Source of the DNA: Escherichia phage PhaxI
Sequence record: JN673056
Strand: one strand, 5' to 3'
DNA: 64,000 nucleotides
The notes under the pieces are model-generated. The model was not told the DNA's origin and searched no databases. It saw only the letters and a program-made list of their open reading frames with translations. This document shows positions 44,676-50,236 of this stretch, in pieces (positions within the stretch are counted from its first letter, which is position 1; each line of letters opens with the position of its first letter). The translations under genes were made by a program, and so were the position numbers.

Positions 44676-45125
44676 TCAGAAACGGGTATCGCTGACCGTT
44701 CTGTATCGCACACCCTGAAACTGTTTAGCGAGTTTAACAAATTCCATCGCTGGCAAATCAACTTTGTAGACCTTCATGCGCTGTTTGCCGTCCATGTTCA
44801 ACGCAGCGACAAATCGGTGAGACCCGTCAACAACGTAATTGTCAGAAGACACCCAAACTCGACCCATGGGCTTCTTATTTCTGATCTGCTTCATAATCTT
44901 CCAGACCTTCATTTTATTGATTTCGTTCTGGGTAAGACGAAGCATTTTGATGGGCACTTGCGCAGCATCTATGGACACGCCGTTGTCTTCAAGATATTTG
45001 TGAAAATCTTCTTGTTTGTCGGCATCGATTTGCGGCATAGAAGAACGAGAAAGCCCGAGGTTCCCAACAGGAATCCTCAGGCCATTTATGATATTCATCC
45101 AGTCAATAAAGGATGTAAGGAACAT
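44676..45125 (-). CDS. ParB-like nuclease domain protein
   Basis: YVVDGSHRFVAA matches the ParB/Srx-fold GxHR motif; 149 aa. Confidence 0.5.
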   Translation of the reverse strand: MFLTSFIDWMNIINGLRIPVGNLGLSRSSMPQIDADKQEDFHKYLEDNGVSIDAAQVPIKMLRLTQNEINKMKVWKIMKQIRNKKPMGRVWVSSDNYVVDGSHRFVAALNMDGKQRMKVYKVDLPAMEFVKLAKQFQGVRYRTVSDTRF

Positions 45126-45162
45126 GACACACCTCGGGATATAGGGTTATCCCTTAGTTAGT

Positions 45163-45441
45163 TCATTCGGACTTAAACAGCAATTCGCGAACAGAAGTCC
45201 CAACGATATTTTGGGCGTTCAACAAACGAGTTAAATCATCCATGTCGTATGCTGAATTGGTGACATGGCCCAAGATAATCGCCAACATTCCCTCCAGCGC
45301 TCTCCGATTGTTATTCTCTTCAATGTCAAACTTAATTTCAACAAATCGAGATAGCATTCTGGATTGAGCATGAGTTTCGTTGGTTTTGCTCTGTATAATA
45401 TCTTTGATTTCCGAACGAGCAATACTTCTTTGATCTGTCAT
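45163..45441 (-). CDS. Hypothetical protein
   Basis: 92 aa; preceded by a promoter/stem-loop/RBS cassette (AAGGAACTATATCATG). Confidence 0.4.
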   Translation of the reverse strand: MTDQRSIARSEIKDIIQSKTNETHAQSRMLSRFVEIKFDIEENNNRRALEGMLAIILGHVTNSAYDMDDLTRLLNAQNIVGTSVRELLFKSE

Positions 45442-45464
45442 GATATAGTTCCTTCATTTCAAAT

Positions 45465-45487
45465 GGGCGGGGCAAAGATACCCCGCC
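45465..45487 (-). promoter_or_regulatory. Intergenic stem-loop cassette (PeSL-like), copy 1
   Basis: GGGCGGGGcaaagataCCCCGCC flanked by TATAAAC and CATTTGAAATGAAGGAA-ATG. Confidence 0.5.
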
Positions 45488-45493
45488 GTGGGT

Positions 45494-46000
45494 TTATAGG
45501 GTAACAAGTGATACGGTAAAAACCATCGTCCCATCTGTTGTCATTTTTCTTGAAACTGGGAAGACGCGAGGCTGACAGAATATCCATTCTTTCTCCATGG
45601 ACGCCAAGTCCAGCATATCCATTTCTGATTCATCGCCTTTGTTCACAAATTTTTCTAGAGAACCAAAGACATTAAGCCCCTCTGGGAGTCCGTTTCGATG
45701 TTTATAACAAATGCGGGCAACAGCTTTGGTTCCATACGATTTAGAAAATTGTTTGGCCACATGCTTCAGTTCGCTGAAACTAAGACAAGAATCCCATGTC
45801 TGAAACATGTCTCCTCGTTCAAACATCATCTCCAAACGCGCAACGTCCTCTTTAGGCAACCCGCGATAAAGTGTGGTCATCTGCGGTTCGCGTAATTCTT
45901 GCACCAGACCACGGATGGCAGGGGAAACAGTGCCAGGGCGCATGATGTGGGACTTATCATGGACGAGGTAAAATAAATCTTGAATTTGTTGATCGGTCAT
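45494..46000 (-). CDS. Hypothetical protein
   Basis: 168 aa; preceded by a second copy of the same cassette. Confidence 0.45.
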   Translation of the reverse strand: MTDQQIQDLFYLVHDKSHIMRPGTVSPAIRGLVQELREPQMTTLYRGLPKEDVARLEMMFERGDMFQTWDSCLSFSELKHVAKQFSKSYGTKAVARICYKHRNGLPEGLNVFGSLEKFVNKGDESEMDMLDLASMEKEWIFCQPRVFPVSRKMTTDGTMVFTVSLVTL

Positions 46001-46024
46001 GATGTATTTCCTTCATTTCAAATA

Positions 46025-46047
46025 GGCGGGGTAATCATACCCCACCC
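46025..46047 (-). promoter_or_regulatory. Intergenic stem-loop cassette (PeSL-like), copy 2
   Basis: GGCGGGGtaatcataCCCCACC flanked by TATAAC and TATTTGAAATGAAGGAA-ATG; near-identical to copy 1. Confidence 0.5.
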
Positions 46048-46059
46048 TAAGTTATAGAA

Positions 46060-46293
46060 TTAACTGATGTGCTTCAGAAGAGCGAAGAGGATCGCGGCCT
46101 TGGCTTTCACCTTTCCGACGACGCCTGTTTCGACATCGACTTCTTCGGCAACCCAATCTTTTCCCTTCTTGCTGATGATAACATCGCGGCGCTGGGCATA
46201 TACTTCTTTGGTCGCATACACACGACGGAACCCTTTAGCGCGGAGCAAGCCCCAATTACGATCATCTCCACTGAGTTCTACCATTTGTCTCAT
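46060..46293 (-). CDS. Hypothetical basic protein
   Basis: Start set at MRQMVELSG (AAAGGTAGATATATCATG); the track ORF extends to 46350. Confidence 0.4.
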   Translation of the reverse strand: MRQMVELSGDDRNWGLLRAKGFRRVYATKEVYAQRRDVIISKKGKDWVAEEVDVETGVVGKVKAKAAILFALLKHIS

Positions 46294-46412
46294 GATATAT
46301 CTACCTTTCACCTGTGAACCCATCGTTCGCCAGTTATTGAATATACGCATTTGCCTTATAGAAGTAAACCCCTAAAAGTAAAAATCCCCCAACGTTTGTT
46401 GGGGATCTTCAG

Positions 46413-46745
46413 TTACTTGCGCAGGGCAACCACGTATTCGGCAAGTTCACCCATGGTCGGGTCGTCGCCTTTACCGCCCAGCCAGCCATCAGAGATCTCG
46501 ACATTGAACTCTTCTTCTAGTTCCATGACGATTTCGATGGCATCAAGATCGTCGCCGCCGAGGTCTTTCTTGGTGCGGAGGCCAGCCAGTTTATCCAGGG
46601 CGTCATTCATAATCACTTCCGCGTCGACGATGCCTTTGATGCTGCTCTTGTCTTCGTCACTGACTTCCAGGTTCAGATTGTCAGTGGCGTACTGAGCCAG
46701 GTGACGCATTACTTCAACATAAGTTGGTTTGTTTGACATAAGCAT
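46413..46745 (-). CDS. Acyl-carrier-protein-like acidic protein with Asp in place of the phosphopantetheine-attachment Ser
   Basis: DLGGDDLDAIEIVMELEEEFNVEISD versus canonical ACP [26 protein letters not shown]. Confidence 0.5.
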   Translation of the reverse strand: MLMSNKPTYVEVMRHLAQYATDNLNLEVSDEDKSSIKGIVDAEVIMNDALDKLAGLRTKKDLGGDDLDAIEIVMELEEEFNVEISDGWLGGKGDDPTMGELAEYVVALRK

Positions 46746-46758
46746 ATCTCAAAATGAA

Positions 46759-46774
46759 GGCGGGTTTCCCCGCC
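46759..46774 (-). terminator. Stem-loop between the vWA gene and the ACP-like gene
   Basis: GGCGGGtttcCCCGCC. Confidence 0.45.
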
Positions 46775-46782
46775 AGTTGAAT

Positions 46783-48999
46783 TTAGATTTTGACTTCTTT
46801 TTCAGCCAGTTCGGCAGTGACGGTGTATTTCACCCCATCAACGTCCACATCCATAGTGGATTCTTCCAAATCCAGGTCGGTAAACCAACCATGGCCTGCA
46901 ACAATCCCATAAACTACCTTGGACAGCGTTTTGTTCAGAGATCGAACTTCGTTGATAGCTGCTTTTGCTGCATCACCAATCCAACTTTCGATCAGCTTTT
47001 TCTGAGTCTCTTCCGGTACGCTGGTGATCATCGGCGATTTAACAAACGCATTGTATTCGGCCAGGGCATTAGCGATCAGCTGATCAGCGACATTCAGTTT
47101 TTTACCGTCCGTCTGTTTTTTGATAACAGACGCGATGCTCGGCAGTGAAGATGCGCCTTTGATTTTCACATTCAATTCACGACTCATATAGACATCGGTT
47201 GATTCTACAGAAGAAGTCTTCGGTGAAAATCCATAGTCGCGAATGCCGTTTGCTGACAGGAAATCAGCCGCTTCTTTGCCATATTTTGAAGCCAGACCCG
47301 TAGCGTTGCCTTTTCCAACCAGTTCATCACGGTAGAATTTCAGAACTTTCTGTTTTGCCTTCAATGCTTCACGGCGCACATTGTCTGCAAAGAATTCAGC
47401 AGCACTGATATTCTTTGTCATGGCGCGGTTAACCATTGGGACACTTTCCAGATTTACAATGAAGACTTCCGGCCCACCAAACACATGAACACCCATGGCA
47501 GTCAAATCCTGTGCCACCTTAGCCCGAACAATCGGAGAATCTGCAGTGATAGGCATTGTTTTCAGGTTGATGATACCATCCTTGACAATGGTGTAATTGC
47601 GATAACGCCATGTATCCAGCTCTTCAGGAAGTTCATATTTCTTCTGTACAAACTCGGGCACAACAACCGTCCCGTGTTGAACTGTCTGCACACTGATGTT
47701 AGGACGTTCTGAATTATAGACCAAATTGCTGATCGGGACAATCCCTTTATCATCTGCTGGATTGAATTCCGGCGTCCAATCTTCGTGCTCGGCCAGTTTG
47801 AGCGCCAGGGCTTTACGCTCTTCTTTAGAAGTCGCATTCGCAATCTCTTCGGCCAACTTGTCTTCGGTGTCGTCAACTTTTTGTATAGTACCGCGCCCAA
47901 TGCTCTTGTAAGAGAATAGCGGATGCTTGGTGACGATAGAGACATCTGCTTCAGCCAAATACGTCAGAACATCAACAATGGTGGTGGCGTCTTCAGCCGG
48001 AACCATATTATAATCGATGCCATCAACTCCTCGCAGAGATTCGTCTACGATAGCCTGAGTCAGATCGACTTTGATGTTGGAGTAATCCTGCTTGGTGAAA
48101 CAGTTGCTGTATTGTTTGATGAAGCGGACGTCACCCGTTTTCTTCAGCGCAGCCCAAACCAAATCTGCGTCCATGGTATACACGCCGTAAAATGCCAGCA
48201 CGTATGCCGCTTGGATGTCTGCCAGATTATCCAGCTGGTCGATCATGTTGGGGTTTACAACCCACAGCTGAGAAACGCTTTCAGGGATGCTGACGTGGCC
48301 AATAGGGTGCTCTTCATCAGGATGCACAGCTAAAACAGTCGCCACGCCATTTTCAACATAAATGGCATGGGTGTAAACCAGGGGAACATCGACCACCACT
48401 TTCGGTGAAGAAGTTTTTAGCACGTTTTCCAATTCGGTCTGATATTCATTCTGGCCTTCGGCGAATACGTGGGTCGCACCAGAACGTTCTGCCATTAGCG
48501 CCAGCAGTTCGCGATTACAATACCAACCGTATTCGATGAAGGTAATGTTATCAAACGCTTTGGGCAGTACTTCAGCGGCATCCAGGATTTCATTAGAGCG
48601 CCAGCAGTTGTCATATCCGTCGGTCATGAACGCCAGGTTATTGACATAACCAGGTTTGTTCAGGCTCATCGCGGTTTCAGCAGCCAACTTCAGAGGTTCT
48701 ACAAATCCCGTACAACCTGACGGTTGCAGGAAGCGGTCAATCAGTTTATTGATTTCACTGAGATCGGTCGCGCTATTGATCTGACGGCCAGCGAATACCG
48801 TACCGAAATCACCACGGGATGAAAAGTAAAGAATGCTGACGGTATCTTCTGGTTTAACCAGAGACGGGAGATTTTCCTTCAGATGCTTACGGACTTCTGG
48901 AAGTGAAAGATACATGGACCGGGAGATATCCACAACGATTACATGGTTAGACGGTGCGACGGTCGCAACCGCATTCTTAAATGTTAATGATTCAATCAT
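46783..48999 (-). CDS. von Willebrand factor A (vWA) domain protein, ~740 aa
   Basis: N-terminal MIDAS-like HVIVVDISRSMY (DxSxS) plus downstream T and D positions; rest unassigned; start set at MIESLTF (GAAGGT RBS; the track ORF starts at 49035). Confidence 0.6.
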   Translation of the reverse strand: MIESLTFKNAVATVAPSNHVIVVDISRSMYLSLPEVRKHLKENLPSLVKPEDTVSILYFSSRGDFGTVFAGRQINSATDLSEINKLIDRFLQPSGCTGFVEPLKLAAETAMSLNKPGYVNNLAFMTDGYDNCWRSNEILDAAEVLPKAFDNITFIEYGWYCNRELLALMAERSGATHVFAEGQNEYQTELENVLKTSSPKVVVDVPLVYTHAIYVENGVATVLAVHPDEEHPIGHVSIPESVSQLWVVNPNMIDQLDNLADIQAAYVLAFYGVYTMDADLVWAALKKTGDVRFIKQYSNCFTKQDYSNIKVDLTQAIVDESLRGVDGIDYNMVPAEDATTIVDVLTYLAEADVSIVTKHPLFSYKSIGRGTIQKVDDTEDKLAEEIANATSKEERKALALKLAEHEDWTPEFNPADDKGIVPISNLVYNSERPNISVQTVQHGTVVVPEFVQKKYELPEELDTWRYRNYTIVKDGIINLKTMPITADSPIVRAKVAQDLTAMGVHVFGGPEVFIVNLESVPMVNRAMTKNISAAEFFADNVRREALKAKQKVLKFYRDELVGKGNATGLASKYGKEAADFLSANGIRDYGFSPKTSSVESTDVYMSRELNVKIKGASSLPSIASVIKKQTDGKKLNVADQLIANALAEYNAFVKSPMITSVPEETQKKLIESWIGDAAKAAINEVRSLNKTLSKVVYGIVAGHGWFTDLDLEESTMDVDVDGVKYTVTAELAEKEVKI

Positions 49000-49266
49000 C
49001 GTTATTACCTTCTTTGGTGGTTTGAGCGGCTTCACCTTCCGGCTTTGCCAGCATGTGTTCTATGAATTCGCGATTAGTTTCAATCTGTTGGATTAAAACT
49101 TCGCTGGGTTTAAACTGTGAGTCAAGAGAGTCAACTCTTGAACGCAAAAATGGTTTGGGCAAAGTAATTTCCCTCGCTTTACAATTGGGCCATTATACCT
49201 TGGCTTGTTAATTGAAACGCCCAGCAATTTGCCGGACGTTATTGATTTTGAAAGACTTTTGAAGAA

Positions 49267-49992
49267 TTACAAGTATGACACCACGATGGCTCTATACAGC
49301 GCCCCCACGGAATCACCAGGTTGGGCTTTCGGATCTAACAAGAATTTCTTAACACGATCACAAGCTGCTTGGCGTTTGTCTTCTGACAGGTCACACCACG
49401 GATAATCCCCTGAAGCAGCATTACACGTTTTCGCCAAACGCAGGACAAGTTCAGAATTTAGATCTTCAGAAGTCATAAACGAGCGAAGATACGCTTCCAC
49501 CAAAGATCTTGCTTCACCATTACGCCGTTCGTTATAACGTTCATTATCGGTGCGAACAAATTCAACTCGACATCCCCGACTTGGATCCTTGGGATGACGA
49601 AACACGACGGATTGTCCTTTACCCTCAAGGAATTCAGAACCACCCATCTCATGTATCGCTTCCCTTTCTGACACATATTCATCAATGTTGATCTTAGCAT
49701 CTTTGGCGGACACATCGATGATCTGCTTTTCTACTATCGCGCGATATGCTTCCAGTTCCCATAGTTGAGAAAGGGTCTTTTCATAGGCCAGCTGCTTGCC
49801 TATTTCTTCATCGAAGTGGCAGGGGTCTACCGATGTGGAACTATTCTTACCCCACACAATGAACCCATTGTCCATCTTGAAATGGCATGTAATGACGCGG
49901 TGACCACCAACTTCACGGTCTTCATAAATCACTTCGGCGATGTGGGACTTTAGAAGTTCTGGAGTGAGTTTAATCCCTTCACGATTACCCAT
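49267..49992 (-). CDS. Hypothetical protein
   Basis: 241-aa ORF. Confidence 0.45.
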   Translation of the reverse strand: MGNREGIKLTPELLKSHIAEVIYEDREVGGHRVITCHFKMDNGFIVWGKNSSTSVDPCHFDEEIGKQLAYEKTLSQLWELEAYRAIVEKQIIDVSAKDAKINIDEYVSEREAIHEMGGSEFLEGKGQSVVFRHPKDPSRGCRVEFVRTDNERYNERRNGEARSLVEAYLRSFMTSEDLNSELVLRLAKTCNAASGDYPWCDLSEDKRQAACDRVKKFLLDPKAQPGDSVGALYRAIVVSYL

Positions 49993-50236
49993 TATCCACC
50001 CCCACTTTCACTAAACGGTCTAGTAATTGGCGGATATTACGGGGGCAATGTTCTAGATCTTCATCAGACAAATACAGCACGTTGGTCTGAATATCTTTAA
50101 AAGTTGAAAGGTTATTCAACTCAGATTCGACGACGGTTTTCAATTGCGTATACGCTTCATCGCAATAATTTCGGCGGTTGCAGTCGGTCATTACCTGAGA
50201 TAACTTTTCAAAAGATTCTTGTATTTCCTTTGACAT
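49985..50236 (-). CDS. Hypothetical protein
   Basis: 83-aa ORF. Confidence 0.4.
   Translation of the reverse strand: MSKEIQESFEKLSQVMTDCNRRNYCDEAYTQLKTVVESELNNLSTFKDIQTNVLYLSDEDLEHCPRNIRQLLDRLVKVGVDNG

Follow-up and report, generated by a model that had tools for sequence, protein, structure and literature searches.

A serine-less relative of acyl carrier protein in Ackermannviridae phages, probably a binding-only protein and not a carrier

What can a phage protein annotated as acyl carrier protein (ACP) do if the serine that should hold its cofactor is missing? The question was raised by a small minus-strand open reading frame (ORF) in a stretch of 64,000 nucleotides of Escherichia phage PhaxI (JN673056; "the window" in the following). 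A sequence-only reading had described its product as an ACP-like protein with aspartate in place of the phosphopantetheinylated serine, unable to shuttle acyl groups and possibly acting as a decoy for ACP-binding host enzymes or as an acidic, perhaps DNA-mimicking, protein. Positions 45000-50000 of the window share 98% identity with Salmonella phages SS3 and SS9 and 97% with Escherichia phage CBA120 (Ackermannviridae, Kuttervirus), whose homologue orf142 is labelled "acyl carrier protein" in RefSeq. With tblastn, 272 phage records were found to contain the gene, practically all of them from Ackermannviridae, and many of the ~270 Ackermannviridae genomes with the gene label the product "acyl carrier protein". 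We assign a probability of roughly 85% to the reading that the gene encodes a selected, non-carrier protein with an ACP fold which acts by binding only.

The relationship to ACP was evident from profile, sequence and structure comparisons. The product scored 31.0 bits against the Pfam model PF00550 (PP-binding; gathering cut-off 20.8; E-value 3e-7) and matched the "acyl carrier protein" family phrog_4154 with residues 3-110 against profile positions 1-108 of 108 (E-value 2.6e-57). The best NCBIfam ACP models reached 30-36 bits (others lower) against cut-offs of 66-106, with the alignment confined to residues ~56-86. A phmmer search of the PDB returned 100 ACP chains, that of Bacillus subtilis ACP being the best. 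The AlphaFold2 (AF2) model, made with 21 homologues, had a mean predicted local distance difference test score (pLDDT) of 74.6 and contained helices at residues 9-23, 30-41, 47-54, 66-80, 86-91 and 98-108. All of the top 50 Foldseek matches of this model in the PDB were ACPs or ACP-containing complexes (prob about 1.0, target-normalised template modelling score about 0.7), and the protein is accordingly modelled with the four-helix fold of ACP.

The cofactor position was determined from the alignment and the model. In the ungapped phmmer alignment to B. subtilis ACP (kkdlggDDldaieivmeleeefnveisd) Asp66 falls on the 4'-phosphopantetheine serine, and in the AF2 model Asp66 is the first residue of helix II, like Ser36 in ACP. 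Since the serines nearest to Asp66 are residues 35 and 85, no register shift can supply a serine; the alignment was checked for one at the attachment position, as the sequence-only reading had proposed, and none was found. Together with the PF00550 score and the ACP-fold model, the alignment bears out the identification of an ACP-like ORF with aspartate at the carrier position.

To place this residue in its family, homologues were collected as 29 clusters from a search of 5.8 billion proteins and as 8 more distant full-length relatives from a search of 1.84 billion representatives. The residue at the serine site was glutamate in 27 and aspartate in 8 of the 35 cluster representatives and serine in none. 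Glutamate also occupies the site in two deep-branching Ackermannviridae, Erwinia phage Bue1 and Serratia phage 3M. With such a distribution the replacement is neither a sequencing error nor an accident of one lineage. The codons at the site are GAT, GAA or GAG; all other residues reachable in a single step (Asn, Lys, Gly, Ala, Val, His, Gln, Tyr) were absent, despite saturated synonymous divergence between the deeper pairs. Because solely aspartate and glutamate occur under such saturation, the negative charge at the former serine site is itself selected.

The phosphopantetheinyl transferases (PPTases) form a phosphodiester to the serine hydroxyl. Since an acidic residue replaces this serine throughout the 35 representatives, the protein, as judged from its sequence, cannot receive 4'-phosphopantetheine at the canonical site and hence is no canonical acyl carrier, and the earlier claim of a carrier incapable of phosphopantetheinylation stands. 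No PPTase, fatty-acid synthesis (FAS), polyketide synthase (PKS), non-ribosomal peptide synthetase (NRPS) or acyltransferase genes are annotated in the 157-kb genome of CBA120, in which about half of the genes are "hypothetical", and there would therefore be no phage pathway for a carrier to serve.

The gene does not look like a decaying remnant. Pairwise ratios of nonsynonymous to synonymous substitution rates (dN/dS) were 0.04-0.40 wherever dS could be estimated (unsaturated), which argues for a maintained and selected non-carrier protein and not for a decayed gene. Purifying selection on the protein and its presence throughout Ackermannviridae are thus well established at the level of sequence comparison. 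The acidic residues of ACP helix II dock on basic patches of partner enzymes, and established structural work on Escherichia coli ACP has assigned this docking to the surface residues D35, D38, E41, E47, E48 and D56. Their phage equivalents (D65, D68, E71, E77, E78 and D86) are invariant or nearly so. In the family alignment D65, L67, I70, E71, E77 and D86 of the helix II region are invariant and D68, M74 and I84 nearly invariant, and E78 and E79 belong to one or the other group. The second conserved block, a family-specific W...GDDPT motif, comprises W88, G90, D94, D95, P96 and T97, again invariant or nearly so, with T97-x-x-E100 reading as the capping box of the last helix. Outside helix II and this motif the protein evolves fast. 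The inserted segment between helix I and helix II, with two short predicted helices and low pLDDT, has the highest column entropy of the family. The positions of these and the other features of the locus are given in Table 1.

Table 1. Features of the ACP-like locus and its surroundings in the window.
Feature	Position	Strand	Details
Serine-less ACP-like coding sequence	46413..46745	minus	110 aa from first ATG; CBA120 orf142 homologue; phrog_4154; translation MLMSNKPTYVEV...DLGGDDLDAIEIVMELEEEFNVEISD...VVALRK; stop TAA at 46413-46415
Asp66 codon GAT at the 4'-phosphopantetheine Ser position	46548..46550	minus	E or D in all relatives examined
Helix II ("recognition helix") and next loop	46488..46565	minus	residues 61-86, DLGGDDLDAIEIVMELEEEFNVEISD
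Family-specific motif in place of the ACP helix II-III loop	46455..46490	minus	residues 86-97, DGWLGGKGDDPT
Hypervariable insertion relative to canonical ACP	46596..46670	minus	residues 26-50
Divergence island between Kuttervirus genomes	46281..46737		nucleotide comparison with SFP10
Intrinsic terminator directly after the ACP-like gene	46386..46405	minus	TCCCCAAC-AAAC-GTTGGGGG then ATTTTTACTTTT
GC-rich hairpin in the 37-nt spacer between VWA and ACP-like genes	46759..46774	minus	GGCGGG-GAAA-CCCGCC
Upstream neighbour, VWA gene (CBA120 orf143, phrog_2426)	46783..48999	minus	738 aa; listed ORF reaches GTG at 49035

Variability of the locus was examined by nucleotide comparison with SFP10 in 60-nt sliding windows. 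Through the terminal ~2 kb of the upstream VWA gene most windows had 90-100% identity, and those at its end 98%. The ACP-like gene opened with a window of 88%; from 46677 on, across the rest of the gene, its terminator and the beginning of the gene behind it, values were down to 35-77%, and they rose again to about 80% thereafter. At the protein level the VWA product is 98.5% identical to that of SFP10 and the ACP-like protein 62.5%; the corresponding values for the metagenomic locus L003 are 76% and 36%. Metagenomic relatives of the ACP-like protein are 36-41% identical to that of the window, and most of their syntenic neighbours 50-85%, a milder contrast than that within Kuttervirus. The allele of the window shares 92% identity with that of the Agtrevirus AG3 and 61% with that of the Kuttervirus Vi01, which implies exchange of alleles across genera. 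In SFP10 a DenV-like endonuclease V gene (L022:3749-4204, "endonuclease V N-glycosylase") takes the place of the Alt-like gene that in the window lies two genes downstream (45494-46000, minus; 168 aa, matching the C-terminal region of the "RNA polymerase ADP-ribosylase" family phrog_832). The ACP-like gene thus lies in an accessory plasticity zone in which ancient alleles are maintained, and its non-structural surroundings, the swapped accessory genes and the deep allelic divergence are typical of host-interaction loci.

The gene probably starts at Met3 (46737-46739), which would give a product of 108 residues, since homologues open with MS.KPTY and the phrog_4154 match begins at residue 3. 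Its ribosome-binding site looks weak. No T4-type late promoter (TATAAATA) was found near the gene, a scan for sigma-70-like promoters around it gave hits at chance level only, and the protein sequence has no obvious signal peptide. A virion proteomics table of phage Sajous1 (PMC10892097) lists the orthologue gp186 ("putative acyl carrier protein") with one retrieval in mass spectrometry of purified virions; we regard this as weak evidence that the protein is made, with carry-over more likely than a structural role. An antisense ORF (46351-46695, plus strand, 114 aa, rich in Ser, Pro and Leu) was rejected as a gene, as conservation follows the minus-strand frame, and is taken to arise from the GA-rich composition of the acidic coding strand on the other side. 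The ACP-like gene of Bue1 (vB_EamM-Bue1, MG973030.1; L023:4816-5115, 99 aa, FAMDELDYIE with Glu at the serine site) lies directly after the VWA gene and is missing from the gene calls of that record, and hence represents an unannotated gene.

If the protein does not carry acyl groups, it may act purely by protein-protein binding. We propose that a cytoplasmic, very acidic pseudo-ACP keeps the four-helix fold, together with the acidic face by which helix II docks, and presents this helix to the basic ACP-docking surface of another protein, the fixed Glu/Asp carboxylate possibly standing in place of the phosphodiester of holo-ACP. As it can never be loaded, it would act during infection on ACP-client proteins of the host, one or several, as a dead-end competitor or modulator. 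Candidate clients, most likely host proteins, would be the enzymes of fatty-acid, phospholipid or lipid A synthesis, SpoT and others, and further specificity for the target would come from the W...GDDPT motif and the hypervariable insert. The invariant acidic docking residues of helix II count in favour of the decoy proposed by the sequence-only reading, which by analogy is plausible. A precedent for inhibition by an unmodified ACP is given by apo-ACP, which inhibits E. coli growth and the glycerol-3-phosphate acyltransferase (review PMC3896788). A preprint predicting a contact between a phage ACP and FabZ does not appear to state which phage is involved. We hold the complete mechanism, including competition of a non-acylatable ACP mimic at host ACP clients, only tentatively and put its chances somewhat below even.

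Several observations weigh against a host-client target. Host ACP makes up ~0.25% of soluble protein (PMC3896788), and a simple competitor would need high expression or a higher affinity; the ribosome-binding site looks weak. The literature search turned up the protein in annotation tables only, and neither an experiment on it, nor a treatment of its function, nor a mention of the missing serine. The helix II sequence shows no greater similarity to enterobacterial AcpP than to ACPs from elsewhere, the best phmmer match being that of B. subtilis. Exported ACP-like lipoproteins with D or E at the serine site also keep helix II, and its conservation alone is therefore no proof of contact with a cytoplasmic client. 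If the targets were as strongly conserved as the FAS enzymes, they would not alone account for the hypervariable alleles, and the VWA gene, as a constant neighbour, points instead to a partner within the phage.

This neighbour, orf143 in CBA120, has an N-terminal VWA domain with an intact metal ion-dependent adhesion site (MIDAS) motif (DxSxS ... T ... TDG), followed by a beta-sandwich. Its AF2 model (pLDDT 86.9) matched solely VWA and beta-sandwich proteins, e.g., 4fx5 and ArnB (Sec23/24-like), and the attempt to derive its function from structure gave no lead; for its ~440 C-terminal residues (300-738) no recognisable match was obtained, the structure search included. The family phrog_2426 is widespread in large phages, with 502 phage records across Ackermannviridae, Straboviridae (Slopekvirus, Karamvirus and others), PBS1 and Rhizobium phages. 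In the main rival explanation the ACP-like protein would serve a phage protein as its dedicated subunit or adaptor, with this VWA/MIDAS protein as the foremost candidate. In integrin I-domains and in the Rea1 MIDAS a ligand Asp or Glu completes the metal coordination, and mitochondrial ACP serves as a structural module in complex I and in the Isd11 complex. By analogy an exposed carboxylate, possibly the D/E at the former serine site, would complete the coordination of the phage MIDAS, with the ACP fold as a structural module.

Such a partnership is suggested by the genomic context. The VWA gene lies immediately upstream with a spacer of 37-48 nt in CBA120, Ag3, Sajous1, Dickeya, Maynard, Vi01, Magnus, SFP10, L002, L003 and Bue1, inspection of 10 genomes or loci showed the ACP-like gene in the same place behind the VWA gene, and this order holds in all Ackermannviridae genomes and loci examined except Serratia phage 3M, where three small genes stand between. 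The MIDAS motif is conserved across 35 diverse homologues, the invariant W88...D94-D95-P96-T97 suggests a dedicated interface, and the ACP of Plasmodium mitochondria offers a precedent for an ACP as a pure binding subunit. Against it, a scan of six-frame ORFs with a hidden Markov model found no ACP-like ORF within 2.5 kb of the VWA homologues of Matisse (Straboviridae), PBS1, a Rhizobium phage and Shewanella phage Thanatos-1 (identity of the homologues in Straboviridae, PBS1 and the Rhizobium phage, 23-49%), so that the VWA protein needs no ACP-like partner and an obligate gene pair was rejected. The interruption in phage 3M, the conserved hairpin between the two genes and their unlike evolutionary rates likewise speak against a partnership, and adjacency within one syntenic virus family is weak evidence. 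We consider this explanation possible but rather unlikely.

The hairpin in the spacer is kept in structure and not in sequence in distant metagenomic loci (GGCCGGGG/CCCCGGCC in L002, GGGGGC/GCCCCC in L003). It is annotated as "terminator" in phage Maynard, and a T-tract follows it in only some of the relatives. It could be a leaky terminator or an element of RNA stability or processing which sets the ratio of VWA to ACP-like expression. A hairpin equivalent to the terminator behind the ACP-like gene was found in CBA120, L002 and L003, and a promoter-like site lies ahead of the gene that follows.

A more specific version of the binding-only reading takes the protein as a phosphomimetic of unloaded holo-ACP, which would be accepted by, and lock, the host readers of ACP state (SpoT, lipid-synthesis enzymes), the alleles reflecting an arms race. 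SpoT binds holo-ACP and not apo-ACP. We regard this version as unlikely. CBA120 encodes several MazG-like or nucleoside triphosphate pyrophosphohydrolases (orf013, orf070, orf157) and a PhoH-like protein; if any of these acts on (p)ppGpp, there could be a link to an ACP mimic acting on SpoT, which is offered purely as a lead.

The divergence island could also be the mark of an anti-defence or escape protein, i.e., an acidic decoy that is either a nucleic-acid mimic or a bait for a variable host immunity protein, with an arms race driving the allelic turnover. The sharp borders of the island, the exchange of alleles across genera (AG3, Vi01), the swapped neighbouring slot in SFP10 (DenV-like for Alt-like) and the net charge of the protein are in line with this. 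The computed bulk charge of the protein (isoelectric point 4.2, net charge -14) is, however, no greater than that of ordinary ACP (4.05 and -15 in E. coli), and the DNA-mimic alternative of the sequence-only reading, which was built on acidity only, finds no specific support in this comparison. The conserved part of the protein is the ACP docking helix and not a charge array. The DNA mimics Ocr and ArdA are elongated dimers with phosphate-like rows of charge, unlike the four-helix bundle predicted here. No match to a characterised anti-defence family was found, all PHROG matches being ACPs or families of unknown function (PADLOC was not searched). An anti-defence role therefore seems improbable. 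A genuine carrier, modified at a non-canonical residue or with a different prosthetic group, is very improbable, as the score above the Pfam threshold, the many "acyl carrier protein" annotations and the nearly invariant T97 (the sole conserved hydroxyl, rejected as an alternative PPTase site) are opposed by the lack of serine at or near the N-terminus of helix II in any member, the location of T97 in the T-x-x-E capping box far from the PPTase site, the NCBIfam scores far below cut-off and the absence of annotated PPTase or acyl-transfer enzymes in CBA120.

The gene family itself is already known and annotated, but as a carrier. What is new is best filed as a serine-less, non-carrier ACP-fold protein with a strictly acidic replacement, extra motifs, a viral context and allelic hypervariability; the predominance of Glu at the serine site among the relatives, the hypervariable island and the fixed VWA neighbour go beyond the sequence-only reading. 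The label "acyl carrier protein" implies an auxiliary function in lipid metabolism which the protein cannot perform, and among the genomes with the gene are those of phages considered for therapy or biocontrol against Salmonella, E. coli O157, Klebsiella and Dickeya. ACP touches the synthesis of fatty acids, phospholipids, lipid A, biotin and lipoate as well as SpoT. Should the protein be an ACP mimic, it would represent a new route of host takeover, with a virus interfering with the ACP interaction hub, and ACP docking surfaces could be probed with a natural protein that cannot be acylated. The strict Glu/Asp at the cofactor site offers a directly testable hypothesis of phosphate mimicry; if it were true, the protein would be the first ACP mimic used for viral host takeover.

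Among known systems the closest likeness is to AcpP (PF00550, TIGR00517), a small and very acidic four-helix protein whose helix II corresponds nearly residue for residue (DLGxDxLDxxExVMxLEEEF), docking acids included. The phage family differs from it by Asp or Glu in place of the 4'-phosphopantetheine serine in all members, by a ~30-residue hypervariable insertion between helix I and helix II, and by the W...GDDPT motif in place of the helix II-III loop, and it remains far below the NCBIfam equivalog cut-offs.

The mitochondrial ACP (mACP) of Plasmodium and other apicomplexans has Phe in place of Ser, cannot be acylated and is essential as a binding subunit only (bioRxiv 10.1101/2021.04.13.439690; PMC8547962). 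Both are retained, non-acylatable ACP folds without the carrier serine, and in mACP the replacement residue contributes to the interface. The Phe of mACP is, however, hydrophobic and fits the co-evolved LYR protein Isd11, whereas the phage residue is always acidic and no LYR-type partner is known (none was looked for); the context is an organelle in one case and a virus in the other. Apo-ACP of E. coli (work of Keating and Cronan, as reviewed in PMC3896788) lacks the prosthetic group and yet docks on clients and inhibits, which is the mode proposed here. It is the host's own protein in an abnormal state, whereas the phage homologue has diverged, can never be modified and carries extra motifs; its inhibitory action is a proposal.

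Other phage ACP homologues (phrog_5934; Xanthomonas phage phiXF1, phiCbK, PhiW-14 and others) are likewise small ACP-fold proteins of unknown role annotated under auxiliary or host-takeover functions. The serine of the canonical DSLD is retained in the ACPs of phiXF1 and of a human-gut phage, whereas Asn stands there in Vibrio phage 277E43-1 and Glu in the metagenomic locus L004; the Ackermannviridae clade, in contrast, has D/E throughout and a PHROG to itself. In the protein of 277E43-1 (L009:2980-3513, 177 aa, "hypothetical protein") the ACP-like domain, with Asn in place of the carrier serine (NLGFDNLDFVE), forms the N-terminal part and is fused to a ~95-residue C-terminal extension; the protein is thus a serine-less phage ACP-like protein of a different type.

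The same change from serine to an acidic residue in an ACP-like helix II was found in many metagenomic bacterial proteins (P0095, P0098, P0110, P0117, P0139, P0155, P0170 and P0172 in L012-L015) with lipoprotein-type signal peptides (…L-x-G-C…). P0095 (L012/L013) is encoded just upstream of an enolase-superfamily (MR_MLE) gene, and the gene of P0172 (L014/L015) overlaps the end of a PF06439 3-keto-disaccharide-hydrolase-like gene. To judge from their signal peptides these proteins would be exported, beyond the reach of PPTases and coenzyme A. They differ from the phage clade in these peptides and in their bacterial chromosomal context, and they are not its nearest relatives when the serine column is masked. 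A single D/E superfamily of both was rejected, since under this masking the phage clade was nearest to itself and many of the other D/E proteins were nearest to serine-containing ACPs, in a hit list biased towards D/E by the query profile. The replacement has therefore arisen more than once. The exported proteins may constitute an undescribed class of periplasmic non-carrier ACP-fold proteins, and the occurrence of the same replacement in them and in the phages suggests that non-carrier proteins with an ACP fold form a wider, unstudied class.

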